Part shown: piece by piece, positions 6,125 through 26,006 of the stretch
How positions within the stretch are numbered: position 1 is the stretch's first letter
How the letters are laid out: every line of letters begins with the position of its first letter
From: a virus
Strand: one strand, 5' to 3'
Virus record (IMG/VR): IMGVR_UViG_3300044455_000043
Span: 1-52,684 of that record
DNA: 52,684 nucleotides
The notes under the pieces: model-generated
What the model was told of the DNA's origin: nothing
The model's database searches: none
The model's input: the letters and a program-made list of their open reading frames with translations, nothing else
Made by a program: the position numbers and the translations under genes

Positions 6125-6514
6125 ATGAATGAAACCAGTAACGGGAACGGCAACGGAAAGGGTTATATGCGAGCGGGCTCTGCAACCGATATGATATTGG
6201 CCTACGCCTTTCGCTCGTTCGTGATGATCGCGCAAGGCATCGCCGTCCTTCTGCTTTGGGCGCTCCTGAATATGGCGATCACGATTCGGGACGACACCCG
6301 CGATCTCAAAAAGGAGTGGCCCGAGATGCAGAAAGCGATGAAGGACATGAAAGACGATATCGCCGTTCTCAAAAGGCAGGGGGAAACGTTTGCCACGAAA
6401 AAGGAATTAGAGAACGCGACGACCCAAGTGACAGCCGAATTTAAAAAACTTCTCGACGAGCAGTTAAAACAAAATGCAGCCACAACCAAGGACAAATTGA
6501 ACTATGCCCGATGA
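6125..6514 (+). CDS. Membrane-anchored coiled-coil protein, 129 aa.
   Basis: Transmembrane segment (FVMIAQGIAVLLLWALLNMAI) followed by a K/E/D-rich heptad region. Confidence 0.45.
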   Translation: MNETSNGNGNGKGYMRAGSATDMILAYAFRSFVMIAQGIAVLLLWALLNMAITIRDDTRDLKKEWPEMQKAMKDMKDDIAVLKRQGETFATKKELENATTQVTAEFKKLLDEQLKQNAATTKDKLNYAR

Positions 6515-6633
6515 ACCACCACCTGATCCGACGCCGCCAGAGGAGCCCTCTCCTTCGCCAACTCCGATCCCGGTGAAGAATCCTGACTGAGTAGGCAAAA
6601 CAGTGGCCGCGAGGGAACTCAGCGGCTACTCTT

Positions 6634-6855
6634 TTGAATATGACACCAGCAAAAATCAACGAAACGATCAAGGCGCGCGAAGCCGAGATCGCAGCAATCG
6701 ACTCAGCGTTCACCAAACAAAAGGCCGAAGTGCAGAAGATCAACGACCAGTTTCGTGAGTACTTCGGCAACGCGCAGTTGAAGGTTGCGAACCTCAACGG
6801 GTGCATCGCCGAGCTGCGCCGGATGCTGCCGAAGCCAAAGGAAAAGGGGAAGTAA
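6634..6855 (+). CDS. Small coiled-coil protein, 73 aa.
   Basis: The ORF abuts the next fibre gene (TAAATG). Helical, K/E-rich sequence. Confidence 0.4.
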   Translation: MNMTPAKINETIKAREAEIAAIDSAFTKQKAEVQKINDQFREYFGNAQLKVANLNGCIAELRRMLPKPKEKGK

Positions 6856-7761: not shown

Positions 7762-7762
7762 C

Positions 7763-9322
7763 ATGGCTGAACCAACTTATTTCGGAGGACTGGTGAACCC
7801 GAATCTATTCGGGAACCAGTCGAACCGTGATTGGTGGCAGCGACCAAGGGACACTTCAAATCGTCCACACTCAGCAATGGACTTCGGCGCTTCCTCTGGG
7901 GGATCAGGACGGGAAGCTCGCGTTGCTACCGTCAATCGCCCGCGTCCAGCACAATTCGATGATCTTAGCGGGGACTTCCCACCGATTGGCTTCTCGGGAG
8001 GAGGAACATCTGGCGTTGATTACCGCGACTCGATCGGCGGGCCGACACTTGGACCGAGTATCAGTCCAAACGTTCTGCCGGTTCAAAACCGACCCCACGC
8101 CGCGATGGATTTCGGGCCCGAGGCATCCGGCAGTGCAGTTGTGTCGCCACGCACGGCTTTTGGCGGCGAAGCTCTGGCATCCGGCAACAGCCTTGGACTC
8201 CCAACCAATCCCGGCTTGGACACTGGCCCCGACTTGTTCGGGAACAACCGCGCGATCAACGCGTTCGATGAATGGTGGAGAACGGGCGAACGCACTGCAC
8301 CGTCTCTCACGGTCAACCCCGGCGAATCGTCCAATACTGGCGGGAGCATCTGGGAGGGGTCTGACACGCTCGGCAGCTTTGTTGGCGATACGTCGATCGG
8401 GCGCGATCTCAGCGCGGACCTCGCCTCTCTTGGCTACGGTGAAGGCTATCCAGAAACGCTGCCAGCTACCGACCCCAACCTGATCGTCGGGAACGGCGAT
8501 CCGACTGGCATCCCTGTCGAACCAGACCCGCTCAACCAGAACCCCGATACTGAGTGGACGACTTCACCGGAAGAGAGACGCTTTCTGCCAACGCCAGAGG
8601 ATACGACGACGCCAGACCCCGCCGCGGAGCGCACGGCCGTCAGCGGCCTCGACCTGCGCACATTCGGTGCGCCATCGAACAATATGTCTCTCGGAGCGTT
8701 CCTGAACGCTTCGCTTGGTTCGATGCGGTTCGGAGAAAGCTATCCAAACATCCGAGGCGACGGATTGATGACCGGGGTTGTGACCGCCGGAGGTCAAGTG
8801 GATATGTGGGGCAACCAAATCGACGACGTTGGCGGTAGGTGGGTTTCCGGTCCCACTGGAGATACATGGGTCGAGGATTCGCCGGGGAGCACTCGATCTA
8901 CCGCAGGCGGTCAACCTTCTTCAACTGGAACTTCAACTGGAACCAGCCCGTCGGTCGGTTATTACGATTGGGGTTCTGGTGGAGTAAGAGCACTGCACGG
9001 CACCGCTACGGCGCGCGATCCAAATCCTAATCAGCGAGACGGTAGGGGGCCGAGCGGCCTGTCCGAGTTTGCCAACTTTCATATGTGGTTCGCTGGTCTC
9101 CCCGGCACTCCCAACAATACCGGCACCAACAGCGAAAACGAGCGGACGCTATTTCCAGGCCAGATCGGGCGTCTCAACGAGTTTGGCGAGTACGAGCAGA
9201 CTGGCTCTTTCCCGACTGGTTTTCGCACCACAGAGACAGAGGGCAATCGGAATGTGAGAAGGTCACTCATTTACGGCTCTGGCGCTCGGGCCGGCGTCGG
9301 CGGCAGAGGGAGGGGCGGCTGA
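7763..9322 (+). CDS. Low-complexity G/P/S/T/N-rich virion-module protein, 519 aa.
   Basis: No long hydrophobic or helical runs. Duplicated NRPH(S/A)AMDFG motif at 7859-7888 and 8087-8116. RGG-rich C-terminus. Confidence 0.5.
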   Translation: MAEPTYFGGLVNPNLFGNQSNRDWWQRPRDTSNRPHSAMDFGASSGGSGREARVATVNRPRPAQFDDLSGDFPPIGFSGGGTSGVDYRDSIGGPTLGPSISPNVLPVQNRPHAAMDFGPEASGSAVVSPRTAFGGEALASGNSLGLPTNPGLDTGPDLFGNNRAINAFDEWWRTGERTAPSLTVNPGESSNTGGSIWEGSDTLGSFVGDTSIGRDLSADLASLGYGEGYPETLPATDPNLIVGNGDPTGIPVEPDPLNQNPDTEWTTSPEERRFLPTPEDTTTPDPAAERTAVSGLDLRTFGAPSNNMSLGAFLNASLGSMRFGESYPNIRGDGLMTGVVTAGGQVDMWGNQIDDVGGRWVSGPTGDTWVEDSPGSTRSTAGGQPSSTGTSTGTSPSVGYYDWGSGGVRALHGTATARDPNPNQRDGRGPSGLSEFANFHMWFAGLPGTPNNTGTNSENERTLFPGQIGRLNEFGEYEQTGSFPTGFRTTETEGNRNVRRSLIYGSGARAGVGGRGRGG

Positions 9323-11103
9323 TGCCAGCGCAAGAGAGACTGATTCGGGATGGGTGGAAAAGCCTGGCTGGTGGCGCCGACGCTGGACGCCGGCCGAGCG
9401 AGATCGGGAAGAACCAGTACGAACGCGGCAACAACCTTGTTTGCCGCGGCGGAATCGGCGCCGAGGTGCGCCCGCCCATCCGCGCGCACGAGTTGAATTT
9501 CTCTCGGCGCAACATGACCTATCTCGCCAACGGACAATTCAGCACGGTCGATGGTGTTCCAGATCAGTCAGTTACGAATTTTCACGACGAAACTTTGCAG
9601 TGCGCCAGCTATTTTGCTCCACGTGGAACAAAAGCGTCGATCATGGCGGTTGTCGGCGGGCGGCTCTACCAGCTTACGCCGAAAAAGTCTCGTGGCGTGG
9701 ACATTACGGAGATCGAACTGCCATACCGCAACCGAAAGGCGATCCCGCTGGCCTTCATGTATCAGGCTGACAGGTTCCACATCACGCAGGACGGCGAATC
9801 CAAGCCGATCATCTTCGACGGCGTGGCAGCGCGCAGGGCGACGGAAGGTCAGATTCCGGTCGGGACCATCGGGGAATACGGCCAGGGGCGCATTTGCCAG
9901 GTGGTCAACGGGCGCGAGATTGCGTTTGGCGATCTGTTCGGGAGTCACGACGGCCGAGAAGGCAAAAAGGTCTTCACCGATCCAGGCGAGTCGGTCTTGG
10001 AATTTAGCGAGACGACGTATTTGAACGAAGGTTTCAACGCCTCGATTGCGTTCACGCTTGGGCCGATCACCGGCCTCCGGTTCGCGCCACAGCAAGACTC
10101 AGCCGTTGGTGACGGCGAACTATTGGCTTTCTCTGAAAACGGCATCTCGAGCTTTTTTCTGTCGCAGCCTCGGGAGTTCTGGAAGGACTCGGCGTTCCAA
10201 CGCATCACCGCGGAGGGTAGCGGTGGCCGAAGCCACGACATGATTGTGACGGTGAACGGGGATCTCTGGTATCGGAGCGACGACGGCGCGCGCACGTATC
10301 GGCAGGCGCGCGCGGAGATTCAGGGCTGGGCTCATCTGCCGCTCAGCACGGAAGTCAGACCGTGGATGATGTCCGACACGCCGCAACTGCTCAAATACGG
10401 GAGCGCAATCCTGTTCAACAACCGGCTGATTATGACGTGTAGCCCAAGGACCAATCAGGGTCGGGTTTACCACAAAGGGCTGATCTCTCTCGATTTTGAT
10501 GTGCTTTCGACCTTTGGGCAGGCGACCAAGCCGGCGTGGGACGGGCATTGGGACGGGCTGAAATTTGTTCGGCTTGTCACCGGCAAGTTCGACGGCGTGA
10601 ATCGCGCCTTTGCTTTTGCGATCGACTCTCAAGGCAGAAATCAGATTTACGAGCTAATGCCGGAACCAGGCGGGGAAGATTCAAGCGGGCCGATTTCTTG
10701 GCAGCTCGACATGCGCTCGATGGATTTCGAGACGCCGTTCAACGAGAAGCGGATTCAAGGCGCAGATTTGTGGGTAGATAACGTGACCACCGAGGTCGTC
10801 ATTTACGCGAAGTATAAATCCGATCAGGAACCGGACTGGCAGGACTGGCAGACTTTGAACGTTATCGAGCCCGTCGGCGAATGCCAGGCGGTAGATTGCG
10901 GCGGGGTGCCGACGATCAAGAAAGGCTACTTCCCTCGTCGGACTTTGCAGACGCCGCCGGATTCGTGCAACGAACAGACGCGACGAATGGGACGGCGCTG
11001 CTTTGAATTTCAGACGCAACTCTACGGAACTGGTCATTGTGTCTTGAACCGCTATCGCTTAAATGCTGTCATGGTCGATGAAGACGAAAGGGCAAACTGC
11101 TAA
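9322..11103 (+). CDS. Large tail structural protein, 593 aa (nozzle or tubular candidate).
   Basis: ATG 9322 overlaps the upstream stop (TGATG). The tracked start at 9085 lies inside the previous gene. Beta-rich sequence with a Cys-rich C-terminus. Function is assigned from position only. Confidence 0.45.
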   Translation: MPAQERLIRDGWKSLAGGADAGRRPSEIGKNQYERGNNLVCRGGIGAEVRPPIRAHELNFSRRNMTYLANGQFSTVDGVPDQSVTNFHDETLQCASYFAPRGTKASIMAVVGGRLYQLTPKKSRGVDITEIELPYRNRKAIPLAFMYQADRFHITQDGESKPIIFDGVAARRATEGQIPVGTIGEYGQGRICQVVNGREIAFGDLFGSHDGREGKKVFTDPGESVLEFSETTYLNEGFNASIAFTLGPITGLRFAPQQDSAVGDGELLAFSENGISSFFLSQPREFWKDSAFQRITAEGSGGRSHDMIVTVNGDLWYRSDDGARTYRQARAEIQGWAHLPLSTEVRPWMMSDTPQLLKYGSAILFNNRLIMTCSPRTNQGRVYHKGLISLDFDVLSTFGQATKPAWDGHWDGLKFVRLVTGKFDGVNRAFAFAIDSQGRNQIYELMPEPGGEDSSGPISWQLDMRSMDFETPFNEKRIQGADLWVDNVTTEVVIYAKYKSDQEPDWQDWQTLNVIEPVGECQAVDCGGVPTIKKGYFPRRTLQTPPDSCNEQTRRMGRRCFEFQTQLYGTGHCVLNRYRLNAVMVDEDERANC

Positions 11104-11834
11104 TGGCCATTGATGTCGAGATTTCCTTTGCCACTCCCGCACCAGAGGATTGCCCAACGACGTTTACCGAAAACGTCGAACTGTTGAACGAACTGGTCAG
11201 CGGCTCAATCGTTGCGAACATCACGCCGTACGTTCGCCAAGCCGCGACTCCCGGCGTCGATCAGCAAAACCTTGTCTGGCACAAGATCGACGTGGATGGG
11301 CGCCCGATTGGGACGTTTCACTTTTACAGCGGTTCATGGCGCCGCGAGTACTCGGGCCGGCAGGATGAGATTCGCTATTACATGGGCGACCCAGCGATTC
11401 ATTTCGAGAGCAACGGTCGCGGGATTGTCGGCGGTGAATGGGACGGATTCGCTCTTTGCAACGGCAACAACGGCACGCCGAATCTCTCGGACAAGTTCAT
11501 TGTGGGCGCGAAGATGGATGATCTCGGCGTCGGCTATCCGACGAACGGGCCGTGGAAAACGAACGTCTCGGGATCAGCGGAATCGACCGGCGGCGTTAAC
11601 GAAATCACGCTGACGGACGACACGACTTATCGGCCAGCGAAACCTGCGGTCGAACTCTTCCGACGAACGGCAGATGGCGAGACTCCCGATGCAGCGGGCG
11701 GTCTATTCGGATTTGGACCGGACGGGGCGAGCGAGATTATTGCGGCTGATCCAGGCAACGAAACGCCAGACGCTATTCCTACACTGCCTCCGTTTTACGC
11801 GCTCGCGATCACAAAATGGATCGGCTACATCTGA
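11103..11834 (+). CDS. Tail protein with a tail-collar-like motif, 243 aa.
   Basis: WDGFALCNGNNGTPNLSDKFIVGA resembles the phage tail collar signature (W..CDG....PdLr.rF..G). Confidence 0.5.
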   Translation: MAIDVEISFATPAPEDCPTTFTENVELLNELVSGSIVANITPYVRQAATPGVDQQNLVWHKIDVDGRPIGTFHFYSGSWRREYSGRQDEIRYYMGDPAIHFESNGRGIVGGEWDGFALCNGNNGTPNLSDKFIVGAKMDDLGVGYPTNGPWKTNVSGSAESTGGVNEITLTDDTTYRPAKPAVELFRRTADGETPDAAGGLFGFGPDGASEIIAADPGNETPDAIPTLPPFYALAITKWIGYI

Positions 11835-11836
11835 AC

Positions 11837-12100
11837 ATGAAGGCACCGAAGAACTCATTCAGAAACTTGACACTCAAGCCGGCTGTACAGAGTTTCTCCG
11901 CAACGGATGAGACGCCGGCTGGTGCGATTGACGGAAGCAACAAATTTTTCACGACCATCAAATCCTTCTCGAAAATCCTTGTCTATTATAACGGGCAACG
12001 GCTTTGCACGGCGGAAGATTTTACTATCATCGGCCCGAACTCATTCAGACTTCTAACGCCTCCCCACCCTGGAGAAAAACTCAGGGTGGATACCTGGTAG
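11837..12100 (+). CDS. Small Ig-like/beta-sandwich protein, 87 aa.
   Basis: The pattern GAIDGSNKFFT...VYYNGQRL...DFTI...LRVDTW matches the C-terminal domain of the next fibre (SNKIFT...VFLNGQLL...DYVY...IRVYGAY). Confidence 0.45.
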   Translation: MKAPKNSFRNLTLKPAVQSFSATDETPAGAIDGSNKFFTTIKSFSKILVYYNGQRLCTAEDFTIIGPNSFRLLTPPHPGEKLRVDTW

Positions 12101-12109
12101 CAATTTAAC

Positions 12110-13153
12110 ATGGCAGCAACAAAAATTTGGGGTAGTCGGCAGATCGCCGCGGCAAGTCTCACCAACACTGAGCAAGCCTTCGGCACACCTTCGTCCGCCA
12201 GTGATGTGGCGACCAAAGGATACGTTGACTCAGTAGCACAAGGTTTATCAGCCAAACCTTCTGCTGTCGCAGGAACAACCACGGCATTGTCCCCGACGAA
12301 CACTTATTCGTCTGGTGTTCTGACCGCTACCGGCGTTGGTACGTTGACGGTTGACGGCATACTAACAGCACTGAACGACTACATCCTGGTCAAGAACGAA
12401 GCATCAGGATTGAAGAACGGTTTGTACAAAGTCACCACCGCGGGCACTGCGGGCGTGCCTTACGTCCTTACCCGTGCGGTTGAAATGGATATCTCTGCCG
12501 AGTTCACAGGAGCATTTGTCTTTGTGGAAGGCGGGACCGTCAACGAAGGCAGCGGCTGGATTCAAACTTCCGCGGCACCTACGGTTGGAACTACCGCGAT
12601 TGTGTTCGTCCAGTTCTCGGGCGCTGGGTCAATCACTGCTGGCAACGGTTTGTCCAAGTCGGGCAATACCCTGTCGATTGACACTGCCATCACTGCGGAT
12701 CTCACAACGGTGCAGACGCTGGCAAACAAGAACTTTAGTTCTCCGTTCTCCATTGATACTTTTTCCGTGACTTTGGGGGGCGCTGTTGACTTTGGTAGTG
12801 ATGTTACCCTAGATGGCGTTTTCACTACGATCGGAGCCTCTGATCTTGTATTGCGCACGGCTGTTGGTGGCACGGATGTTACTTTCCCTTCTAGCGGTAC
12901 CCTCGCCACCCTTACCGATCTCAAAGCACAAAAGTCAACCGCAGTTTCTGGTACCCAAGACTCCTCAAACAAGATTTTCACAATTGCCAACACCCTGATT
13001 TCCGGCAGCGAGCAAGTGTTCTTGAACGGCCAGCTTCTCATGCCGGGGGCTTCAAATGACTACGTTTACAACGGCACGACCACAATCACCTTCCAAGCTG
13101 GTTTCACCGCTCCGTCCGCTACGGACGTGATCCGCGTTTACGGCGCTTACTAA
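12110..13153 (+). CDS. Tail fibre protein, 347 aa.
   Basis: G/T/S/A-rich beta-type sequence. FPSSGTLATLTDL repeat unit. C-terminal Ig-like domain shared with 11837..12100. Confidence 0.6.
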   Translation: MAATKIWGSRQIAAASLTNTEQAFGTPSSASDVATKGYVDSVAQGLSAKPSAVAGTTTALSPTNTYSSGVLTATGVGTLTVDGILTALNDYILVKNEASGLKNGLYKVTTAGTAGVPYVLTRAVEMDISAEFTGAFVFVEGGTVNEGSGWIQTSAAPTVGTTAIVFVQFSGAGSITAGNGLSKSGNTLSIDTAITADLTTVQTLANKNFSSPFSIDTFSVTLGGAVDFGSDVTLDGVFTTIGASDLVLRTAVGGTDVTFPSSGTLATLTDLKAQKSTAVSGTQDSSNKIFTIANTLISGSEQVFLNGQLLMPGASNDYVYNGTTTITFQAGFTAPSATDVIRVYGAY

Positions 13154-14103
13154 TGGCTGCTACTCAACTCACTGGCAAACAAATCAAGGATACCACGATT
13201 GACATCGTTGATATTAACGCCTCCGGTACGCCCGGGGCCAGTAATTACCTGCGCGGCGATGGGACGTGGAGCGCGTTGGACGCAGATTTGACGAGTTGGG
13301 CTGGTGTCACGCGTGCTTCTGGTTTTGACACGTTTGCGACAACGCCCACTAGCGCAAATCTTGACGCTTTAGTTACCGACGATACGGGTTCAGGTGCGCT
13401 CGTGTTCGCGACCTCTCCAACACTTGTGACTCCAGTGCTGGGCGTAGCGATTGCAACCAGCATGGACGTTGCCGGGGTGGTGCGATCCACCAGCTCTAGC
13501 GTGCCAGCAGCCGGAGCCGGGATAGAGTTAATCTACTCTACCCCTCGCGGATACCTGCAAGCTTACGATAGAACCGGGAGCGCCTACAAAGAGTTTGCGA
13601 TGGAGGCGTCAGCCGCGATTATCAATCCCAACTCCGGCGGCACTGCCGGTGTTGGAGCGTTTGGAGTATCTAACCTTCCAACGAACACATGGCACGTGGT
13701 CGGTACCTCCGGCACGCCGTCCTTGCGCATTGGTTCGACCAATCTGAACTACTATTGGGATTTGGGAAGAGAAAATGCCTCTACCGGAGATTTCGTGCTA
13801 CTCACGCATGAAAACGTTGCGTCCACGGAAGCGATGCGAGTCACAACAACCAAAAATCTCCTGATTGGTGGAGTAACGGCTGCCGGAACTTCTGCCGTGG
13901 GAGTGCTGGGTATAGGGAACAGCACAGTTCCATCAACGTCCCCAGCGGATATGATCCAAATTTTCAGTGTGGACCTGAGCGCGGGTAACGCAACTTTAGG
14001 TCTAAGAACGGAAACCGCCGTAGTCACTGAGTCTGTCGTCAGCGACAGAACGCTCAGCGTGAAAATCAACGGAACGACTTACAAAATTTGTCTGAAAGCT
14101 TGA
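13153..14103 (+). CDS. Tail fibre protein, 316 aa.
   Basis: NYLRGDGTWSAL is a fibre N-terminal signature. TAATG coupling to the previous fibre gene. Confidence 0.6.
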   Translation: MAATQLTGKQIKDTTIDIVDINASGTPGASNYLRGDGTWSALDADLTSWAGVTRASGFDTFATTPTSANLDALVTDDTGSGALVFATSPTLVTPVLGVAIATSMDVAGVVRSTSSSVPAAGAGIELIYSTPRGYLQAYDRTGSAYKEFAMEASAAIINPNSGGTAGVGAFGVSNLPTNTWHVVGTSGTPSLRIGSTNLNYYWDLGRENASTGDFVLLTHENVASTEAMRVTTTKNLLIGGVTAAGTSAVGVLGIGNSTVPSTSPADMIQIFSVDLSAGNATLGLRTETAVVTESVVSDRTLSVKINGTTYKICLKA

Positions 14104-14104
14104 T

Positions 14105-15850
14105 ATGGCACTAGCCGCAGGAGGATTGCAGTGGGAAGACGTGAAAGCGGAGATCGCGACCGTCGTCGCCAACGGCGTATGCGCCGATGACGCGCGTGTG
14201 CTTCCGCGTTTCAACGAAGCGACCCGCATCCTGCTTAGCAAGCTCGTGCCCGTCGGGGGAATGGCCACGTACGATGTGGTAGCGCAGGGAACAACGTTGC
14301 TCCTACCGAAGCAGATCGAGAACGCAATCGAGGTCGAAGTGCTCAATGATGCGCAAGTGCGCAACCAGGTTGACGTGACGCAAGGCTGGCAGTTGGTAAC
14401 GAACAGCACCTACATCGACCCATCGAATGCGCACGACAGTCCGCTCGTGGATTTGTTTCTCCATCCCGATCCACAAGATCCTTCGATCCGCCGGCGGAAG
14501 TACGATTTCCCCGGTCTTCAATCTGGCGCAACGGTGCGAGTGACGGGCAAAAAGCAATACGTGCCAATCACCGGGGATGACGATTATCTGATTATCCAGA
14601 ACATCCCGGCGGTAAAGCTTGAGATTCTGGCACGCGAATATCTGGAGCGCGGCGCGCAGTACGCGGACGACGCGCGCAAATATCACCAGATGGCCGTCGA
14701 AGATTTGCAGGAAGAAGTGCGAACGCACATGCTCGACCCGACCAATTCAATGAAGCGCAAGGCAGCGTATCAGAAGGATTTGATCGACTTCGCGGAAGGA
14801 ACGCTTGGCCGGACACGCGCTCGCCTTGCGCTTGAATTGCCGGGACTGATGGCAAAAGGCAAATCGGAGATCACGTATCTGGTCAATCGCGCGGTGCAAA
14901 TGCTGGTCGATAACCGGAACCAGCTTGCGATTGCCGGCCGAATCAGCGTTCACGGCACGACCGACGAAATTGCGTATGTGCCGACAAATGTCGCAGCGAC
15001 CGCGCTGCCGTGGGGAGACTTCAATCAGATCCGTCTGATGGCGCAAAGCTTTATGTCGGAGAGCGGAGAACCGCAGGCGCTTGCCGTCGCGGAGGAGTAC
15101 CAGAAAAAGGCGTTTGAATTGCAGCGCGCGCAGTTGATTGAGGCGACCGAGAAAGCAAGGCACGGCGCTTACACGAGCGCGCTCAGCGAGTTTCCAGACG
15201 GGACGCACGGACACGCTGTTGCGCGTTTGGCGCTTGAGATGCCAGGCGGACTCGCGTTGACCGAGACGGAACTAGATCGGCTTGTCGGGACGGCCGAGAA
15301 GCGAATAATGGAGAAGGGCAAGTACAAGGGGACGCTCAAAACACTTTCAGGAACAATTCATGGCGGAGAAATTCTATTTCCAAGAGATGTCGAGGCGGTG
15401 CTGGTCGCGGACATCTGCGGCTATTCCACGGACTTGAGAAACATATTTTTCGAGTATCAACGGAACGGCCCCGGCCACTGCTTCGAGTGCGAAGGCCGCT
15501 TCGTGGATGCCGGTGAGGTCTATTTTGCCGACACCGCAAGCAAGCGGAGGAAATATATCTACCGGGGAAATTGCGAGCAGGACGTGAGTTTCAGTGCGGT
15601 TGCAAAGATTCGGTACGTGGTCAAAGAAAACTGCGATCCTCTCGTTATCAAAAACTTCCCAGCCTTGCTACTCTACGCGCAGGGGATTAAATACGAGCGC
15701 GAGGAGAAATGGAAAGAGGCGCAAGTCGCGCAGGCTGATTCGATCTCGATTCTGGAGGCTGAGTTGCAGGAATATTTGAGTGGCCTCCAGCATTCTCAGA
15801 ACGTGGACACGGAAGCCTTCGGTTTCGCCGGGTTGGGTGAAATGCTATGA
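14105..15850 (+). CDS. Virion protein with internally repeated domains, 581 aa (adaptor or connector candidate).
   Basis: The N- and C-terminal thirds align: RRRKYDFPG...YLIIQNIPAVKLEILAREY versus KRRKYIYRG...PLVIKNFPALLLYAQGIKY. ARLALELPG aligns with ARLALEMPG. Confidence 0.4.
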   Translation: MALAAGGLQWEDVKAEIATVVANGVCADDARVLPRFNEATRILLSKLVPVGGMATYDVVAQGTTLLLPKQIENAIEVEVLNDAQVRNQVDVTQGWQLVTNSTYIDPSNAHDSPLVDLFLHPDPQDPSIRRRKYDFPGLQSGATVRVTGKKQYVPITGDDDYLIIQNIPAVKLEILAREYLERGAQYADDARKYHQMAVEDLQEEVRTHMLDPTNSMKRKAAYQKDLIDFAEGTLGRTRARLALELPGLMAKGKSEITYLVNRAVQMLVDNRNQLAIAGRISVHGTTDEIAYVPTNVAATALPWGDFNQIRLMAQSFMSESGEPQALAVAEEYQKKAFELQRAQLIEATEKARHGAYTSALSEFPDGTHGHAVARLALEMPGGLALTETELDRLVGTAEKRIMEKGKYKGTLKTLSGTIHGGEILFPRDVEAVLVADICGYSTDLRNIFFEYQRNGPGHCFECEGRFVDAGEVYFADTASKRRKYIYRGNCEQDVSFSAVAKIRYVVKENCDPLVIKNFPALLLYAQGIKYEREEKWKEAQVAQADSISILEAELQEYLSGLQHSQNVDTEAFGFAGLGEML

Positions 15851-16680
15851 AAGACGACATTTGTTTCAAGCAGTCGAAGCGGCTGGCACACACTCGCGCG
15901 TTCGTTGTTTTCGATTGGATGGCGAACCTCGCAATCGACTCCGCTGGTGGCGGCGACAAGGTGTTCGGCCGGAAGCCGGGCGTGGCCGAGTTTACGCCAA
16001 CCGATCTCAGCGAGGAGACGCGCCGTGCGACGCGCGGGAACCTCGCAAACATTGGAGATATTCAGGCGTTGCTCGAGCGCATCCTGCCAGGCTACAAAAA
16101 CATCGTCGGGCAGGAAGGTCGGAACATTCAATCGCTCCTCCGCGGTGAAATTCCGCAGGATGTGCAGGACTCGATCAAGCGGACGGCGGCGTTCCGTTCT
16201 CTTCAAGGCGGGTACGGTGGCTCTGGCATGAGCCGTGCGCTGACCGCGCGGGATCTTGGGCGAACGAGTCTCGACTTGATGGACCGCGGCGGAAACGCCG
16301 CTCAGCGTTGGATGGCGACGACGCAAAACTCTGTCGCACCTTTCATCGTCACGACTCCAATGCAGGCCGCGCAGACTGAGCGGAACAATCTTTACAAGCA
16401 GGTAACCGAGCAATTCAAGTTCAACGTGGAAGCAGCGCCAGACCCCGGTGCCGCAGGACTGTTCAACACGATCAGCACGATCGGCAGCACAGCGGCGTCG
16501 TTCGGTTTGAGTTCAATGGGTGGCGCTGGTGGCGGCGCACGGCCAGCCTCCGCTCCGGCAGCAACCACCAACTCAGGCAGCGCCTTGGCGACCGGAGCAG
16601 CGGCGGGCGCCGGCTACATTCCGCAGACGCAATACGCCTACGGGCCGTGGGACCAAGGCTACAGATGGGGGGGCGGATAA
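15847..16680 (+). CDS. Internal-virion-like protein with a Gly/Ala-rich C-terminus, 277 aa.
   Basis: ATGA overlap with the upstream gene. Assigned from its position before the giant protein. Confidence 0.35.
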   Translation: MKDDICFKQSKRLAHTRAFVVFDWMANLAIDSAGGGDKVFGRKPGVAEFTPTDLSEETRRATRGNLANIGDIQALLERILPGYKNIVGQEGRNIQSLLRGEIPQDVQDSIKRTAAFRSLQGGYGGSGMSRALTARDLGRTSLDLMDRGGNAAQRWMATTQNSVAPFIVTTPMQAAQTERNNLYKQVTEQFKFNVEAAPDPGAAGLFNTISTIGSTAASFGLSSMGGAGGGARPASAPAATTNSGSALATGAAAGAGYIPQTQYAYGPWDQGYRWGGG

Positions 16681-17727
16681 ATGGACTTGGTTGCTCCTCT
16701 CATTCCAGACGCGCAGCGGAATCAAGGCCCTGCCTTGTTTCTCCAAGGGCTCGGGCAAGGTTTGCAGGCGTTCACGCGCATGGCCGAGCAACGTCGGCAG
16801 AGCGAATCTGAGATCGCGCGCATGGCGTTGCAGGAACGGCTCGCGACTCAAGAGCATGATTTGCAGGCGCAGCGGTTGGCTCAAAGTTACGAGTTAGACA
16901 ACCGTCGAATTTTGAACGAGGAGGCGCTGATGCCCGCTCGCAAGGCTGAGTTGGAGGCGCGCGCGGATTACCAGACGAATACCCGAGGCGTGATCGCTCG
17001 CAAGGCAACGGCTCAGATCGCGGCGATGAACGACTTCAACCTGCGCGTGGCGAAGTATGGACTGGACGACCCGAATCCGAAAGATCCGGTGAAGTTCTAC
17101 GCGAACGCGCGTCGGCTGAAAGACGAGTTTAGCTGGGCGAACATTCCCGACATCAAGCTGGCGATAAAAGACATCGACATGCGGACGAAGGAGCACACCG
17201 TTCCATTGTTAATAAATCAGCGCACTACCGATGAGGCCGGGAATGTTCTAATTCAACCAATCACCAAGCAAGTTCCGATTGGCGAGGTTATCGAGAATAT
17301 CAAAGACCCGAAGAAATACGACCAGATGATTGATCTCTTGCGTCGAAACGGACTCTTCCCGAAATACATCGACCCGAACATCGACCCAGAGGGGGAGAAG
17401 GCGGAGACGGACAAGGTCAATGCTAGTCCTACAGTAAAAGCGTTACGGGCGGCTATTCAGGCAGAAACGAAAGCGGTTGAATCGGGCGGCGGAACAGATT
17501 TCAGCCGCGGACAACGCCGTGTTCAGCCTGGTGGATTGATGGCCGAACCGGAAGCGACGCCTGCGCCACCGCAGGACATTGACGAATCCGACCTGTTCAG
17601 CTCGATCGGGCAGACCGAGAAGTATCTCGGGTTCGCCAAGGCTGCTCTCGCCAAGGGCGCAGACCCGCGCGCGGTAGCGGCTAAGCTTCAAGGGTTTGGC
17701 GTGGATCCAGCGCAGCTTTGGGCATGA
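16681..17727 (+). CDS. Coiled-coil internal-virion-like protein, 348 aa.
   Basis: Long helical Q/E/R/A-rich N-terminal half. Assigned from position. Confidence 0.35.
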   Translation: MDLVAPLIPDAQRNQGPALFLQGLGQGLQAFTRMAEQRRQSESEIARMALQERLATQEHDLQAQRLAQSYELDNRRILNEEALMPARKAELEARADYQTNTRGVIARKATAQIAAMNDFNLRVAKYGLDDPNPKDPVKFYANARRLKDEFSWANIPDIKLAIKDIDMRTKEHTVPLLINQRTTDEAGNVLIQPITKQVPIGEVIENIKDPKKYDQMIDLLRRNGLFPKYIDPNIDPEGEKAETDKVNASPTVKALRAAIQAETKAVESGGGTDFSRGQRRVQPGGLMAEPEATPAPPQDIDESDLFSSIGQTEKYLGFAKAALAKGADPRAVAAKLQGFGVDPAQLWA

Positions 17728-17731
17728 AGCC

Positions 17732-20700
17732 ATGCCGACTGTCGAAGAAGTAGGGCCTTTTGCGGACCTCCTGCCAGACAATTTGCTTGGCGGCGAGAAC
17801 GGCCAGCCGGCATTCCAGACGGTCGGCGGTCGGTTCGAGCAGGTGCCACATGCCGAGATTGCTACTCCGACAGAGCTCGGCGCCTTTGCTGATTTGGTCC
17901 CGGCCGATGCGCCGTCGGCGCGCAGCATGGAAGGCGGCGACTATCTGGCGGGGAACCTCGGGCCGTTTACTGACCTGATCCCGGCGCCGAAGACCGAGAC
18001 GGAGAAAGCCGTCCGCGAGACGCCGGTATTCAATCCTCGGAACGAACAGATTCGGGCTGCACCGACATTCTTTGGAGAACTGCACGCTGGCAGACTCGGA
18101 AGCGCCTTTCACTTAGCGAAAGAGATGATCGTCAATGCGTTACCGGAGGAGCGCGGGTTGTCATGGGGTGAAGGTCCAAAGTCCCTACTCGGCACGACCG
18201 AAAGGCTGGAGGACGCTGTTATCAATCCAGACGATCCGCCTGAAATCGCATCGGCGAAGGCGCTCTACAACTCGACTCCCCTGCGAGCTGCGCGCGCTTT
18301 CATCAACGTCGCCAACCGGACGATGGCAGGGCTGACAACGCCTGGCATGATTCCACTGGCGGTGATTGGCGGCGGCGGCGGGATGGCCGGGAAACTGGTC
18401 GCTGGCGCTTTTGCGGGTGACATTGCCATGCACGCTCCAGAGACGTGGAAGGCGATTCAGGAGGCCGACAAGACCGAGCCGATGTCGCTGGAACGCTTCG
18501 AGACGGGCATGGATACCGTTTTGCAGGGGATGATGCTTCACGGCACAGCACGCCACGCCCTCAAGAAAACGCCTACAAAGCCCGCCAGCACGTCGGAACC
18601 AGCGCCGGCCGCAACGTCAGGGCCAGCTACGGAGACGGCACGCTACGCTGAGCCTGAGCGACCGATGGTGCCGATTAAGGAGATTCCGCCTGAAACTCCG
18701 CCTGCTCCTACCGTTCCCGAGAACGTGCGTCGCAATCCAGAGGTTGACCGTCTGATAAACGAGGAGCCGGTTGGCAACGATTGGACGAGGGCGACCGAGG
18801 AGATTCCCGAGGCCAGAGTTCAGCCGGAAGTCGCGCCAGAATCGCCGCGATCTCCCGCCGAGACTTCAACCGCTCCGGTTGAAACCATTGCTCGGGAGAC
18901 TCCCGTAGAGGTAGAACGTCCGCCACAGACCGAACCTGCCCGCGTTTCGCCGGAAGAACAAGCCGAATTGCAGCGGGATCTCGCGGAGGAGAGCGCGTTA
19001 CCGGAGACGGTCGAGCCGCCAGTCGAACCTGCGAAGCCTGCACCCGAGCCCAAAGTGCCGCCCGTCGTCGAACCCGCACCCGAGGTCGCACCGCTGGTTG
19101 TCGAGCCAGTTAAACCTGCGCCGGTCGCTCCGCAGAAGGTCGCGCCTCCGGTTACGCCAGAGGTTCGTAAGGCCGTGAATGCCCCAGACACGTCCTCCCA
19201 AAAACTGCGAGTTCAAAAGGCGTATCTTCTCGACGCGCTCGATGAGGCAGTTAAGAAAGCGCCGAGAGAGGAGGCGCTAACGGAGTCCGCTCGCGAATCA
19301 TTAAACGACGCGCGCAATACTCACTCCTCGCGATACCTGAGTGAAAGCGGCCAAGGCGAAAGAGCGAAAGACCTTGAAAACAAGTGGCAGGCTGTAAAGA
19401 GCACTGTTCCGACCATCGAGATTGAAGTGCCCGGCGATGGCACGTTCACCATCGTCAACACCACCGAGGCGATAAAGACATTCCGCGACCTTGTTAAAAA
19501 GAAATTCCCTTCGACCTCGGCAAAGCCTGACTCCCTCGGAGGGAATCTGCGCGCGACTGAGACGAAGATTGCTGCACCTGGCAAACCGAAAACGGAAAGC
19601 GATTTGGTTAAGATCGCACAGACCGCGGCGAGTAAGGATTTCGAGGGTCGGTTCGTGATTACGCACGTCAAGAGCGACGGCAAGACAATTACCGCAACAG
19701 ATGGTCGGCGGCTACTAATAGTTGAAGGTAAGGCCGGCGGCACCGAAGCGAAGCCCGTTTTTTACAACGAAGGCGGCAAGGCCGTTCCATTGATGGATAA
19801 GCGAGGAGAGGGCGCAACCAAGGGGAACTACCCAAATACCAAAGTCGTCACTCCGGACTATGGCCCAAAGAATGTCGTGGCCGAAGTGGACACCGCGGCT
19901 ATGCAAAAGCTGTTGGTGCAAGCGATGGAGATGACTAGCGACCGAAGCAAGTCCGTCAATCTGTGGATCGACAAGGAAGGGAAGATTGGCGTCACTAGCC
20001 AGCATCCCGATGTGGGAGAATTTGTCGGCGGAGAGGCAAACCCGGCAACTGCTAAGTTTGCGGCTTCCTACGATCCTCAATTTTTGCTCGACGGCATCCG
20101 AGCGGCACGCTCACTCGGACACGAAAAAGTCAGTTGGCAGCTAGACAAGAAACAGCCGGCGGAAAGCCCCGGCGTATTTACCGCAAAGGGAATGAAATAC
20201 GTCCTCATGCCGATGCGCATGGAAGCCGGAGGAGTTCACCCATTAGCCAAGGCGAAGATGGCCGTCGAAAGCAAGGCGTCGAAGATCAAACTGAAAGCGG
20301 AAAAAGAGGGCGGTTTCGTTTCCACTGATATCCTGAGCGAAGTCGCGGACTTCGGTCGCAGTATCTACAAAAAAGGGGTAACATTCGCAGAGTGGTCTGC
20401 CGAGATGGTGTCGCGTCTCGGGAGCAAGGTAAAGGCGCATCTGAAAAGCGTGTGGGACGGGATTCAGAAGATCACCGGCGACGAGCGCGGCGCGATCGGC
20501 GGCAACATCGGCCTGAATATCAAGGGAAAAAAGACACATCTGGACGCGGCGACGGCGAAGCACAGCGCCAAGCTTCAAGTGTCCGTGCGCGATGCTGAGC
20601 GCGCTGGGAAGGAAATCGGCAAGATCGCAAATGAGCGACGGCAGAACGCGATGAGCGTGTGGATGGAAGCCAAAGGCGATCCGGCGTTGCTCGCGCAGTG

Positions 20701-23005
20701 GGAGCAGGCCGGGAAAGGCAAGATGTTCAAACGCGCAGCCAAAGACGCGCAATCATTGAAGCCCGAGGAGATCGCGATGGCGCAAAAAGTCGCGCAGACT
20801 TTCGACGTTCTAGAGAAGCGCGGCAACACTTACGACGTTTTACAGGGGCACAAAGATAACTACGTGCCGCACGTTTGGGATGTGTCGAAAAAGTTTACGG
20901 GCATCGGCAGCGGCAAACTACAAGACCGTTTCAAATTCAACAAGGCGCGCACATTCGAGACGTTCTTTGAGGGTGACCAGGCTGGATTCAAGCCCAAGAC
21001 TCTCGCGATTGGGAAACTTCTCCCGAGCTACCTGCACGAGATGAATCGGGTGATTGCCGACCGGCAGTTCGTTCAAGACGTGACTTCGGGTACGGCGCCG
21101 GACGGTCGCCCGCTTGTCATCCCGCGCGGCAACGCAAAGACGGTGGACACAACCGACTACATCGTGCGCAATGCCGACGGTTCGCCCCTTCCGAAATTCA
21201 AGAAAGCCGTTTATGACACCGCTGCCGAGGCGCAGGCGGCATTGCTGCCGGGCCAGATCGTCGAGAAGCGGCCAACGTCCGCTGCGCTGGTCAACCCGAA
21301 AGGCTTTGCTTCGGCCAAGGACGCGGCCGGCAATCCGATCGAGCAAGGCGATTATCAAGTGACGAATCAGCCGGCGTTGTCGAATTGGCGATGGGTCGAG
21401 ACGGATCCGAAAGGCAATACGACCGTGCTGAAATCCGATCTTGCCGTTCATCCGAATCTGGCGAAACGGTTAAACTCGATGCTGGGACAGTCGGCGCTTC
21501 GCCAGTGGTACAATGAACCTTCCACTGGCCTCGCGACCATCCCGCGCGCGATTGCCAAGGGACTCGACACCGCGCAGTCAGTAATGAAGCGGGAAATGTT
21601 CGGTTCGCTGGCGCCGTTCCACCAGGTTCAAGAAGGAACGCATGCCGTCGGGCACATGGTCAATCCGTTCTTCGGCATCCCTGAAATGAGTCGTCCGACC
21701 GGAGCGCACATCGACGCGATGCAGCACGGACTAATGTTGATGCCCGAGAAGTTGGGTAGCAATTACTCCGAGGGGCTCGGTGGGCGAAACACGTTCTTGT
21801 CGCAACTCTCCAAGAAGTATGGAGGGAAGGCAGGGCGGGCGGTGTCCAACGTGCTCGATGGCTACCAGGATTATTTGTTCCACCAATATATTCCCGGCCT
21901 CAAATTCAAGACCTACGAGCACATGGTTCAGCGCAATGCCAAGCGTTACGCCAAGGAATTGGCGAGCGGTGAAGTCACGATGGGCGACGTGAAGATGCTT
22001 TCCGCGGAGCAATCGAACGCGGCTTACGGACACCTAAATTACAAGCTCCTTGACCGCAACCCAACCATTCAACACATCATGCAGTTAACGATGCTTGCCC
22101 CTGACTTTCTCGAAGCTCGCACCCGCTTCGTCGGACAGGCTTTGCGACCGAGCAAGGCAGGCTTTGAGCAGTTTCGCGCGATCGCGTTACTGGCAGCGAT
22201 TCAGGCCGGCAGCGCCTTTACGTTGTCCAAACTGATTCCCGAGGCCGAATACGATCCGAAACACCCGTTTGAATTGAGAGTCGGGAACCGCACCTACTTC
22301 ATGCGGAGCGTGCCGGAAGATTTGTTCCGCCTGTTCTTTAGTGGCACCGACAAAACCCGAGAGTTCGTCTCCGCGCGCATCAATCCGATGACGCAAAAGG
22401 CATGGCAGGCGGTGTCTGGTTTGAACTATCGCGGAGAAAAAGTGGATTGGACTGACACGATCGGAGAACTGGTCGCCAATTACATTCCGATCATGGCGCG
22501 ACCGTTGCCTGGCATCAATCAACTGACGGAAACCAGCCGAAACAATCCGGTTTCTCCGCTCGAGCAATGGGCGGGTTCTGCCGGCCTCAAGATCAGCCGA
22601 TATTCCCCTATCTCGAAAACCTATCAGATGGCGAAAGAATGGAAGGCCGAGAAAGGGTTGCCCGATGACGCCGGCTCCTATCCTGTCTCAAAATATCAGC
22701 AACTCCGGTACGCCTTGGAGGACAACGATTCTGAGAAAGCGTTGAAGGAATTTCAAAAGCTGCGCGCCTCTGGCATGGAACGGTCGAAGATCACCAGCGG
22801 CTTCAAGGAAAGCTTGCACCATTCCTTTACCGGCTCGCGTAAGACCGATGCCGAGTTTCGGGATTCACTGCCGAAGCACAAGCGGGCACTCTACGATCTC
22901 GCGGTTGAACGTCGGAAGAACATTCTCGATCGGTACAACAAGATCACGTGGCCTACCTCATCCTCTGAATCAACCGACTCGACGATTGTCGTTCCTTCGG
23001 AGTGA
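17732..23005 (+). CDS. Giant multidomain virion-module protein, 1757 aa (ejection or polyvalent-protein candidate).
   Basis: ATG 17732 lies 5 nt after the upstream stop; the tracked TTG at 17696 overlaps the previous gene. Domains in order: three G(P/A)F(A/T)DL(L/V/I)P motifs, a Gly-zipper hydrophobic segment, a P/E/A/V-rich linker, a DnaN-like domain, and a helical C-terminal region of about 900 aa. Confidence 0.6.
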   Translation: MPTVEEVGPFADLLPDNLLGGENGQPAFQTVGGRFEQVPHAEIATPTELGAFADLVPADAPSARSMEGGDYLAGNLGPFTDLIPAPKTETEKAVRETPVFNPRNEQIRAAPTFFGELHAGRLGSAFHLAKEMIVNALPEERGLSWGEGPKSLLGTTERLEDAVINPDDPPEIASAKALYNSTPLRAARAFINVANRTMAGLTTPGMIPLAVIGGGGGMAGKLVAGAFAGDIAMHAPETWKAIQEADKTEPMSLERFETGMDTVLQGMMLHGTARHALKKTPTKPASTSEPAPAATSGPATETARYAEPERPMVPIKEIPPETPPAPTVPENVRRNPEVDRLINEEPVGNDWTRATEEIPEARVQPEVAPESPRSPAETSTAPVETIARETPVEVERPPQTEPARVSPEEQAELQRDLAEESALPETVEPPVEPAKPAPEPKVPPVVEPAPEVAPLVVEPVKPAPVAPQKVAPPVTPEVRKAVNAPDTSSQKLRVQKAYLLDALDEAVKKAPREEALTESARESLNDARNTHSSRYLSESGQGERAKDLENKWQAVKSTVPTIEIEVPGDGTFTIVNTTEAIKTFRDLVKKKFPSTSAKPDSLGGNLRATETKIAAPGKPKTESDLVKIAQTAASKDFEGRFVITHVKSDGKTITATDGRRLLIVEGKAGGTEAKPVFYNEGGKAVPLMDKRGEGATKGNYPNTKVVTPDYGPKNVVAEVDTAAMQKLLVQAMEMTSDRSKSVNLWIDKEGKIGVTSQHPDVGEFVGGEANPATAKFAASYDPQFLLDGIRAARSLGHEKVSWQLDKKQPAESPGVFTAKGMKYVLMPMRMEAGGVHPLAKAKMAVESKASKIKLKAEKEGGFVSTDILSEVADFGRSIYKKGVTFAEWSAEMVSRLGSKVKAHLKSVWDGIQKITGDERGAIGGNIGLNIKGKKTHLDAATAKHSAKLQVSVRDAERAGKEIGKIANERRQNAMSVWMEAKGDPALLAQWEQAGKGKMFKRAAKDAQSLKPEEIAMAQKVAQTFDVLEKRGNTYDVLQGHKDNYVPHVWDVSKKFTGIGSGKLQDRFKFNKARTFETFFEGDQAGFKPKTLAIGKLLPSYLHEMNRVIADRQFVQDVTSGTAPDGRPLVIPRGNAKTVDTTDYIVRNADGSPLPKFKKAVYDTAAEAQAALLPGQIVEKRPTSAALVNPKGFASAKDAAGNPIEQGDYQVTNQPALSNWRWVETDPKGNTTVLKSDLAVHPNLAKRLNSMLGQSALRQWYNEPSTGLATIPRAIAKGLDTAQSVMKREMFGSLAPFHQVQEGTHAVGHMVNPFFGIPEMSRPTGAHIDAMQHGLMLMPEKLGSNYSEGLGGRNTFLSQLSKKYGGKAGRAVSNVLDGYQDYLFHQYIPGLKFKTYEHMVQRNAKRYAKELASGEVTMGDVKMLSAEQSNAAYGHLNYKLLDRNPTIQHIMQLTMLAPDFLEARTRFVGQALRPSKAGFEQFRAIALLAAIQAGSAFTLSKLIPEAEYDPKHPFELRVGNRTYFMRSVPEDLFRLFFSGTDKTREFVSARINPMTQKAWQAVSGLNYRGEKVDWTDTIGELVANYIPIMARPLPGINQLTETSRNNPVSPLEQWAGSAGLKISRYSPISKTYQMAKEWKAEKGLPDDAGSYPVSKYQQLRYALEDNDSEKALKEFQKLRASGMERSKITSGFKESLHHSFTGSRKTDAEFRDSLPKHKRALYDLAVERRKNILDRYNKITWPTSSSESTDSTIVVPSE
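19601..20221 (+). other. DnaN (DNA polymerase III beta sliding clamp)-like domain inside the giant protein.
   Basis: ITATDGRRLLIV resembles E. coli DnaN VATDGHRLAV. GNYPNTKVVTPDY resembles GRFPDYRRVLP. ASYDPQFLLDGI resembles GFNVSYVLDVL. YVLMPMRM resembles YVVMPMRL. The blocks occur in the same order and with similar spacing. Confidence 0.65.
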
Positions 23006-24594: not shown

Positions 24595-25206
24595 TCATTT
24601 CAGATACTTCCTGAAAACCTCAACCCGTTTCTCGACCGTCATGCCGGGAAGGTGCATCGCGAAATCACCGGGAGTCCAGTTGCCTTCGGTTGTCGCTGGC
24701 ATGTCGTAATCCTCGTAGGCGTACGAATTGAACCGCTTCTGAGGAACGTGCGTCACCAAGCACCGCTCGCAGTCCCGCATCGCCTCGACAATCGCGTGCT
24801 GCTCGCTGCCAATGTCCGCTCGATCCCGCATGTGCCAGGCGTCGGACAAGATCACTCGCGCAGCTACCGAATTGCGAACGAAGAACACCCCGAGGTTCGG
24901 CCCGTTCATGTCGTGCGACAAAACGAAGTCAGATTGAATCGGCACGTCGATCAGAAATTCCTCCAGCTTGAGCATCGGATTCGTAATCAGCACGTCCGAG
25001 TCGATGAAGAACGACCAGTTGTTTTCGTGCAGATTTTCCAAGAGCAGTGGAATCTTGTCCCACACAATCCGCTGAGTGGACAGGCGCTCCGTCGCGACGG
25101 TCAGCGGGTAGCCGTGACGCTCGCAGTAGGCTCGCAGGACCGGCACCGTAATGTCGGCGACCGGCTGGAATAGAGAATCGTGGAAGGTGAATACTCCGAT
25201 TGTCAT
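24595..25206 (-). CDS. GT-A glycosyltransferase resembling the GT34 / GMA12-MNN10 family, 203 aa.
   Basis: WDKIPLL, the DxD-type IDSDVLI, NLGVFFVRNS, EQHAIVEAM and GDFAMHLPG. ATGA overlap with the upstream gene. Confidence 0.5.
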   Translation of the reverse strand: MTIGVFTFHDSLFQPVADITVPVLRAYCERHGYPLTVATERLSTQRIVWDKIPLLLENLHENNWSFFIDSDVLITNPMLKLEEFLIDVPIQSDFVLSHDMNGPNLGVFFVRNSVAARVILSDAWHMRDRADIGSEQHAIVEAMRDCERCLVTHVPQKRFNSYAYEDYDMPATTEGNWTPGDFAMHLPGMTVEKRVEVFRKYLK

Positions 25207-26006
25207 ACGGTTGGCAGTTCTAGGCACGCAACGTCATTTGGTCCGCAAATCCCCTGCTTGAGAATGAAGTCGCGGACCATCGGATACGGCATCGAGTTGA
25301 GAGATTTCAAAACTCCGCGTCGGTAGGTTTGCCAGCTTATCACCATGTAGTCGTCCCAATTCGCAGGAGGGTAGAGAACGCCGCCGAGCCTCCCGAGAAC
25401 ATGTTCCAGCGCAGGCGCGTGACCGTACTTCGCGAACCGTTTATCTTCGTTCACAACCGCCTCGTCGAGCTTCACGAAGTCCAACGTCTCGCGTTTGCAG
25501 ATGAAGAACCGCGTCGAAGCCCAATACATCTTGTGCTCAGCAAGCGTCATCGTCGTCGGCTGGCAAACGAACTGGTACCCGTCGTCCAGCCACCGGAGAT
25601 ATTGCGATACGATGTCAGAGTTGGGATCGCGGAACGCTGCGCAGTCCTGGTCGAAGTGCGCGACGTAGCTCCCGGTAGCGAGCTTGAGCGCAGCCACCGT
25701 GATCTTGTCGTACCAGAATTTGCTTTTCCTTTCGTGCGGCTGGCAAATAAACGTGTCGATCTCGCCGCGGCGGATCATCTCGTGGATCTCAGACTGCACT
25801 GAATCAGGCAGCGGTTCGTGTTCGTCGCACGCAACGATGACCTCGACAGTGTGGCCGGCGAAGAATTGAATCTTGTTCCGAATCCCGTCCGTCAACAGGT
25901 CGTAACTGCGAACGCCTTGCAAGGAACCGGGGCCGAAGTCACCGACGGTGCTTTGCTCGGCACCGGCACCTTTGCGAGAATCAACGTTACAGACTATCGA
26001 GATCAT
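25203..26006 (-). CDS. GT-A-like (GT2-type) putative glycosyltransferase, 267 aa.
   Basis: N-terminal ISIVCNVDSR and the DxD-type HFDQDCAAF. ATGA overlaps at both ends. Confidence 0.4.
   Translation of the reverse strand: MISIVCNVDSRKGAGAEQSTVGDFGPGSLQGVRSYDLLTDGIRNKIQFFAGHTVEVIVACDEHEPLPDSVQSEIHEMIRRGEIDTFICQPHERKSKFWYDKITVAALKLATGSYVAHFDQDCAAFRDPNSDIVSQYLRWLDDGYQFVCQPTTMTLAEHKMYWASTRFFICKRETLDFVKLDEAVVNEDKRFAKYGHAPALEHVLGRLGGVLYPPANWDDYMVISWQTYRRGVLKSLNSMPYPMVRDFILKQGICGPNDVACLELPTV

Follow-up and report, generated by a model that had tools for sequence, protein, structure and literature searches.

What is a piece of the bacterial beta sliding clamp doing in the middle of a giant phage protein? 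The question is raised by IMG/VR virus record IMGVR_UViG_3300044455_000043, analysed here over its full 52,684 nucleotides (positions 1 to 52,684; the window), in which a plus-strand open reading frame (ORF) encodes a protein of 1757 amino acids (aa) whose interior had been recognised in an earlier reading of the DNA (the original prediction) as resembling DnaN, the clamp subunit. Bacterial replication and repair centre on the beta clamp, whose partner-binding pocket is targeted by antibiotics. The recognised segment represents a single copy of a mobile cassette descended from a bacterial beta sliding clamp gene; it is a non-ring DnaN derivative and a new domain type in large polyvalent proteins, with the pocket kept and the ring-closing interface lost.

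Homology to DnaN had been proposed from four blocks, all of which are present, in order, in the translation of window positions 19601-20221:

19688-19714, plus strand: block 1, ITATDGRRL, aa 653-661
19823-19861, plus strand: block 2, GNYPNTKVVTPDY, aa 698-710
20063-20098, plus strand: block 3, ASYDPQFLLDGI, aa 778-789
20198-20221, plus strand: block 4, YVLMPMRM, aa 823-830

Residues 624-830 of the giant protein are homologous to DnaN domains II-III, far beyond chance, and the proposed relationship is upheld by sequence, profile and fold comparison alike. A phmmer search with aa 557-856 against 5.8 billion proteins returned 73 matches (best E 2.5e-8, ~29% identity), every one of which carries all three DnaN Pfam domains; these proteins are 284-391 aa long, mostly 364-375 aa with a few truncated, and those with a named source are mostly from Verrucomicrobiota. 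BLASTP against P0001 aligned DnaN residues 143-367 at 31% identity. Among phage protein profiles, PHROG phrog_947 ‘DNA polymerase processivity factor’ matches with E 1.8e-11 over profile positions 236-366 of 368, which is the domain III part only, and phrog_6615 (a 214-position profile) matches the same segment with E 3e-7. Alignment of the cassette family to DnaN with hhalign gave a probability of 99.9 and E 2.1e-32 over DnaN 86-371, while a Foldseek search of the PDB with an AlphaFold2 (AF2) model returned bacterial beta clamps as all 50 of the top 50 matches (E about 5e-10) and no PCNA. Pfam gave no match to the whole giant protein or to its segments, with no DnaN match even at E <= 1; NCBIfam, including TIGR00663, gave none for the protein or its segments, and a PDB sequence search gave a chance match only (E 0.14).

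The extent of the match differs from that first drawn: the four blocks stand, and the homologous unit is longer, at about aa 561-835 and possibly starting at ~484, with a domain II that lacks its second half. Its anatomy was derived from a MAFFT alignment with DnaN of E. coli MG1655 and of Verrucomicrobiota, compared with AF2 secondary structure:

19181-19411, plus strand: helical N-part of the cassette, aa 484-560, kept in most family members
19412-19510, plus strand: ‘VPGDG’ hairpin-helix element, aa 561-593, ‘TIEIEVPGDGTFTIVNT...FP’
19592-19819, plus strand: DnaN domain II remnant, aa 621-696, one helix and three strands
19820-20221, plus strand: complete DnaN domain III, aa 697-830, two beta-alpha-beta-beta-beta motifs, ending YVLMPMRM

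The N-part is collinear with the DnaN N-terminus (KLRVQKAYLLDAL against KFTVEREHLLKPL); as a recognisable remnant of domain I it was considered and rejected, the match of this part alone not being significant (hhalign E 0.14). The VPGDG element aligns with the final strands of DnaN domain I plus the conserved ‘FP’, and surpasses every other part of the cassette in conservation (P567 99%, D569 96% and G570 94% of 127 copies), its consensus I.VPGDG.F.I.N.K.AL..F......FP having no conserved counterpart in DnaN. The same element is present, without clamp domains, in the protein P0182. Only the first half of domain II remains, including R640, I643 and T656-L661, with the second helix and adjoining strands deleted in the window copy. 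Domain III is modelled at a predicted local distance difference test score (pLDDT) of 80-91. Predicting the structure had been suggested as a means of counting clamp subdomains, and the AF2 model contains one complete subdomain (domain III) and a half (domain II), with the clamp fold confirmed by Foldseek.

Three complete tandem clamp domains (~366 aa) are not found, as significant alignment starts at DnaN residue 86, and neither is a PCNA-type protomer with two complete clamp domains and a conserved interface, given the one complete and one half domain in the model and edge residues that are unconserved. The median length of the module, 203 aa, falls about 30 aa short of the 234 aa that the corresponding stretch of DnaN occupies. 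What is retained is the final hairpin of domain I, domain II in its first half and domain III in full; what is missing is domain I proper, the domain II channel helix and the hydrophobic ring-closing interface. Because the N-part and hairpin, the half domain II and the full domain III line up along DnaN, the unit is a whole-gene DnaN derivative eroded to about one and a half clamp domains.

In E. coli DnaN, subsite I of the partner-binding pocket comprises R152, L155, T172, G174, H175, R176, L177, P242, R246, V247, V360 and M362, and subsite II comprises H175, N320, Y323, V344, M362, P363, M364 and R365, as defined in a 2024 review (PMC11139829). Counted across 127 cassettes, R152 is kept in 121, T172 in 122, G174 in 125, P242 in 123, M362 in 122 and P363 in 115, while other positions are occupied by substitutes, conservative ones where the position is hydrophobic: H175 is replaced by R in 107, L177 is L or M in 115, V247 is V or I in 117, V360 is V, I or L in 122, and R365 is R or K in 107. 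The listed pocket positions are therefore conserved at 84-98% across the family; the VPGDG element aside, the best-conserved positions of the cassette include many pocket residues, with R152, T172, G174, P242, M362 and P363 at 91-98%. The corresponding residues of the window copy are R640, I643, T656, G658, R659, R660, L661, P701 and V706, followed at the end of domain III by V824, M826, P827, M828 and R829. All of the domain II residues that contribute to the pocket lie within the retained half of that domain, and the pieces retained by the cassette are exactly those that build the hydrophobic cleft for clamp-binding motifs.

Ring-forming features show the opposite pattern. The position of I272 is occupied by A (32), E (21), Q (21), V (18), S (12) or L (5) in the 127 cassettes, whereas I or L is found in 73 of the 73 verrucomicrobial DnaN proteins used as the interface reference; its equivalent in the window copy is E733. 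The hydrophobic head-to-tail dimer interface (I272/L273) is not found in the window copy, and the partner surface on domain I is also absent. Loss or deletion has also affected the channel residues K198 and K235, the K235 column being deleted in 75 of the 127 cassettes, and the isoelectric point (pI) of the cassette has a family median of 6.2, with 8.9 for the window copy.

Far from being a one-off feature of this phage, the cassette is widespread. An exhaustive search of 1.84 billion cluster representatives, with a profile built from the window copy, P0188 and P0151, gave 1490 matches, of which 229 reached E <= 1e-10. Giants of 1,000-5,800 aa, each matched once internally over ~200 aa, make up nearly all of the top ~130, and a few matches are stand-alone metagenomic proteins of 203-305 aa; canonical DnaN of ~370 aa appears only from about E 1e-15 downward. 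In total the cassette was found in at least 127 giant proteins, as a unit of ~290-380 aa whose extent, in window-protein numbering, is ~551-835 for most of the giants and ~450-835 for about one third, and with about 27-43% identity to the window copy in a 21-member sample. Cassette-bearing giants are located on phage-sized metagenomic contigs of 46-78 kb. On one of these, the 54.5-kb contig of cassette giant P0242, a separate divergent full-length DnaN-like protein of 386 aa is encoded two genes downstream (L017:16412-17572); it lacks the MPMR tail and is unmatched by the cassette hidden Markov model.

GenBank phages and PLSDB plasmids yielded no counterpart. Megablast and tblastn of the window cassette, and tblastn of a stand-alone cassette copy, found none in GenBank phages; with the family consensus as query, tblastn against these phages and plasmids hit nothing but canonical dnaN, located in chromosomes or in records that are mislabelled; and an IMG/VR scan with the single window cassette sequence found none. 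A third, word-indexed protein search returned mainly canonical DnaN, with P0342 (465 aa) and P0343 (220 aa) as the only family members. P0211 drew attention by being equal in length to phi24B gp47, which proved coincidental; tblastn of P0211 against GenBank phages was empty. The 2017 survey of polyvalent proteins (Iyer, Burroughs, Anand, de Souza and Aravind; PMC5512222) makes no mention of clamp, DnaN, PCNA or processivity, and no description of a clamp cassette in polyvalent proteins was found in the literature combining these terms; within the libraries and papers searched, the cassette appears to be undescribed so far.

The protein that carries the window copy consists of an N-terminal region, a Pro/Glu/Ala-rich linker, the clamp-derived cassette and a conserved C-terminal domain:

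17732-23005, plus strand: giant ORF, 1757 aa counted from its first ATG, in an open frame that starts with TTG at 17696
17732-18031, plus strand: first 100 aa, in which the short motif G.F.DL[IVL]P occurs three times, at aa 10-15, 52-57 and 79-84
18599-19180, plus strand: low-complexity linker rich in Pro/Glu/Ala/Val, aa 290-483, running into the variable central cassette slot
20519-22981, plus strand: conserved C-terminal domain, aa ~930-1750 (~820 aa), 140 relatives at 38-68% identity
21617-21655, plus strand: motif PFHQVQEGTHAxGH of the C-terminal domain, aa 1296-1308, with H, Q, H and H invariant in 80 aligned relatives

The C-terminal domain is carried by 29 IMG/VR viral contigs, none of whose loci holds the clamp unit, and tblastn of the domain found none in GenBank phages. 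Its AF2 model is confident (pLDDT 86, predicted template modelling score 0.84) and has no match by fold in the PDB (best E 0.29). No LPD or PolyVal signature is matched by sequence in the window protein with Pfam; by fold, the C-terminal domain is matched by BFVD fragments of phage proteins named ‘large polyvalent protein associated domain-containing’ (best E 8.4e-14). The invariant residues of PFHQVQEGTHAxGH suggest a putative metal-binding or catalytic site. One relative of the giant protein (P0084) lies in a long, bacterial-looking contig of 144 kb (L006), adjoining a DUF3987 protein and a phage integrase, a setting which suggests that some relatives reside in prophages or integrated elements.

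The closest relatives have the N-terminal ~400 aa and the C-terminal domain in common and differ in the middle. Among the 120 relatives listed, the clamp unit is found in only two, P0188, with the cassette entire, and P0151, with domain III alone at 72% identity, and in the sister protein P0147 the central slot holds Sigma70_r4 (aa 577-629; 25.1 bits, with the cut-off at 24.1). This makes the clamp unit an exchangeable insert, and the protein is a giant multidomain phage protein with shuffled domains, combining a length of 1757 aa, a variable slot and a cassette that recurs in at least 127 unrelated giants. As for the company that the cassette keeps elsewhere, LPD38 is found by Pfam in cassette-bearing giant P0203, and Pfam on 12 large members identified LPD1, LPD5, ART-PolyVal, Kinase-PolyVal, InPase, 2H phosphoesterase, Acb1, MutS domain I and sigma-70 region 4, together with a DNA_pol3_beta_3 match in 7 of the 12. 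MutS domain I (MutS_I) and Sigma70_r4_2 were each seen in one of these 12 giants. Polyvalent proteins appear to be gathering places for pieces of core host machinery.

The idea that this is a polyvalent protein is supported by the fold match of its C-terminal domain and by the co-occurrence of the cassette with LPD and PolyVal domains in other giants, and the giant ORF is regarded as a small member of the large polyvalent protein class. Its gene is, as had been noted, the last of a long co-directional block on the plus strand, in which several upstream genes match tail or tail-fibre PHROGs; the three genes immediately upstream are syntenic in one relative. From this position at the end of a tail-fibre-like block, and by analogy with phi24B gp47, a polyvalent protein of 2811 aa that proteomics has located in virions, the giant protein is probably packaged in the virion.

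Since domain I, the channel helix and the hydrophobic interface are all lost, the cassette is most likely a monomeric peptide-docking module and not a ring on DNA. The proteins that dock on the bacterial clamp through clamp-binding motifs include Pol III alpha, the clamp-loader subunit delta, Pol II, IV and V, MutS, MutL and Hda. At roughly even chances, the cassette is a clamp-derived module that is monomeric, probably enters along with the DNA and serves as a dock or decoy, capturing those host proteins that have clamp-binding motifs. The giant protein would be packaged and enter the cell together with the DNA, whereupon the cassette would capture its targets, either tethering scarce replication and repair factors to the incoming genome, itself without a polymerase of its own, or withholding them from the host clamp. 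Because the monomeric E. coli beta variant I272A/L273A binds delta about 50-fold tighter than the dimeric ring does (PMC11139829), delta and Pol III alpha would be attractive targets. Of the two functional ideas put forward in the original prediction, the hijacking of host clamp partners is the better one, in that it would fit the conserved partner-binding pocket. In a broader form, which is held somewhat more tentatively, phages of many lineages would inject a polyvalent-borne monomeric ‘clamp decoy’ that intercepts host clamp-docking proteins, such as delta, Pol III alpha, translesion polymerases or MutS/MutL, in the first moments of infection, so that the host replisome and repair would be redirected or disarmed.

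Several observations weigh against such a docking or decoy role. AF2 is confident for domain III only, with pLDDT 44-74 for the domain II remnant and an average of about 50 or lower upstream of it, including the VPGDG hairpin, so that the geometry of the pocket is putative. Pocket residues are the slowest-evolving DnaN positions in general, and P0151 keeps only domain III, which means that at least one lineage can do without half of the pocket. In the cassette, where the chain continues, there is no free carboxylate equivalent to the one that ends DnaN. Packaging of the giant protein is putative, with no portal, capsid or terminase gene recognised in the window, and a few injected copies cannot titrate abundant host proteins.

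The other functional idea, a clamp that holds or encircles DNA, fares worse. In this explanation the cassette would oligomerise, for example as a PCNA-like trimer of two-domain protomers in which the half domain is completed by the VPGDG hairpin-helix, and ring or cap the incoming DNA. In its favour are the clamp fold itself, the possibility that hairpin-helix, half domain II and domain III together amount to two domains, the basic window copy and the DNA binding that monomeric beta retains (PMC11139829); yet the channel helix of domain II is deleted together with domain I and the channel lysines, the I272-equivalent residue is variable and often polar, the family as a whole is not consistently basic, P0151 retains a single domain, and the module is tethered on both sides inside a 1757-aa chain. 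A DNA-encircling cassette is accordingly regarded as quite unlikely. A related proposal, that the pocket holds single-stranded DNA (ssDNA) or a primed DNA end and in this way marks or protects the end of the entering genome, draws on structure 3BEP, in which ssDNA occupies the clamp-binding-motif pocket of a neighbouring clamp, and on the tighter binding of primed DNA (PMC11139829); that contact is, however, a crystal-lattice observation of modest affinity, and with no further DNA-binding features conserved in the cassettes this role is judged very unlikely.

Conservation of the pocket would also be expected if its ligand were a peptide from one of the phage's proteins, the giant protein included, in packaging, assembly or auto-inhibition until ejection, and conserved linear motifs are available in the giant protein, namely the three copies of G.F.DL[IVL]P (window 17759-17776, 17885-17902 and 17966-17983) and QK.YLL in the N-part of the cassette. 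G.F.DL[IVL]P, which may be a docking motif, occurs as 2-3 copies within the first ~100 aa of ~18 close relatives. These relatives are, however, mostly cassette-free, and the motif is absent from cassette-bearing P0188; the N-terminal repeats were therefore rejected as an in-cis ligand of the pocket, motif and cassette not co-occurring. A C-terminal clamp-binding motif that might mark a phage-encoded partner is found in none of the window ORFs, and the movement of the cassette between unrelated giants argues for a constant partner, that is, a host protein, leaving internal docking unlikely. DnaN dimers form by contact of domain III with domain I of the partner, and the intact domain III of the window copy could thus be imagined to pair with domain I of host DnaN, which would keep the ring from closing or attach the giant protein to the clamps of the host; with E, Q, A or S at the I272 position of most copies and variation at the positions next to it, such poisoning of the clamp is highly improbable. 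Least credible is the view of the cassette as a functionless relic, a host dnaN captured and now decaying: erosion of domains I and II is evident, and P0151 has lost more, but at least 127 cluster representatives share the same truncation and near-invariant residues despite being only about 27-43% identical to the window copy, which points to purifying selection.

Set beside known systems, the docking or decoy module has partial parallels. With DnaN (PF00712/PF02767/PF02768; TIGR00663) it shares homology over DnaN ~86-366, the fold of domain III and the pocket residues, including the C-terminal V.MPMR; unlike the free 366-aa subunit, it lies inside a 1757-aa protein and outside a replication operon, and the window copy falls below the Pfam and NCBIfam thresholds. 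Large polyvalent proteins (PMC5512222) offer the same combination of giant multidomain phage protein and exchangeable cassettes, and the cassette co-occurs with their LPD and PolyVal domains elsewhere, although the window protein itself has no Pfam match to these and a clamp-derived domain is not described there. The I272A/L273A variant of E. coli beta is likewise a ring-less clamp polypeptide with its pocket intact, incapable of processive synthesis (PMC11139829); it is an engineered full-length protein of three domains, whereas the cassette is a natural truncation. The phage clamp homologues of phrog_947 and phrog_6615 both match the window segment; the window copy differs in being fused into a late tail-block protein and in having no close relative in GenBank phages. 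Clamp folds that do without a closed homotrimer or dimer ring are also found in the herpesvirus processivity factors UL42 and UL44, PCNA-like proteins of eukaryotic viruses that bind DNA and their own polymerase; the cassette resembles them in its probable lack of a closed ring.

The genome around the giant gene opens and closes with an exact direct repeat of 127 nt (window 1-127 and 52558-52684), so that the window represents a complete, circularly assembled genome of 52,557 bp. The minus-strand block, at 35650-37208, 43007-44820, 34279-35154 and 24595-25227, carries genes for a recombination pair (YqaJ exonuclease and Erf annealing protein), two DNA methyltransferases, a Lar-like restriction-alleviation protein and a glycosyltransferase.

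In keeping with the original prediction, no polymerase or clamp loader was found among about 40 window ORFs scanned, many of which are unannotated and without any match. Terminase, portal and capsid were unrecognised among the large plus-strand proteins (45511-52403 and 654-17727) by PHROGs at E <= 1, Pfam, a PDB sequence search and a Walker A scan, and no tRNA genes are present in the window. The phage belongs to a lineage very distant from cultured phages. Matches to metagenome-assembled genomes hint at a verrucomicrobial host, although the binning of phage contigs is unreliable. A second exact direct repeat, of 108 nt (window 38299-38406 and 39165-39272, 866 nt apart), gives two small ORFs of the minus strand an identical hydrophobic segment (PMIAANKILAGFACGVVTLICGAIVVMEAAPEAQEP).

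If the docking or decoy reading is true, the cassette would represent a new phage strategy, in which the clamp interaction network of the host is hijacked or blocked from DNA entry onward, and an unrecognised class of delivered host-takeover effector, beside the MutS domain I and sigma-70 region 4 fragments in sister proteins. With the cassette, the polyvalent repertoire, most of it uncharacterised, gains a domain that is well defined and easy to test, and that may serve as a minimal scaffold for studying or inhibiting clamp-partner interactions.

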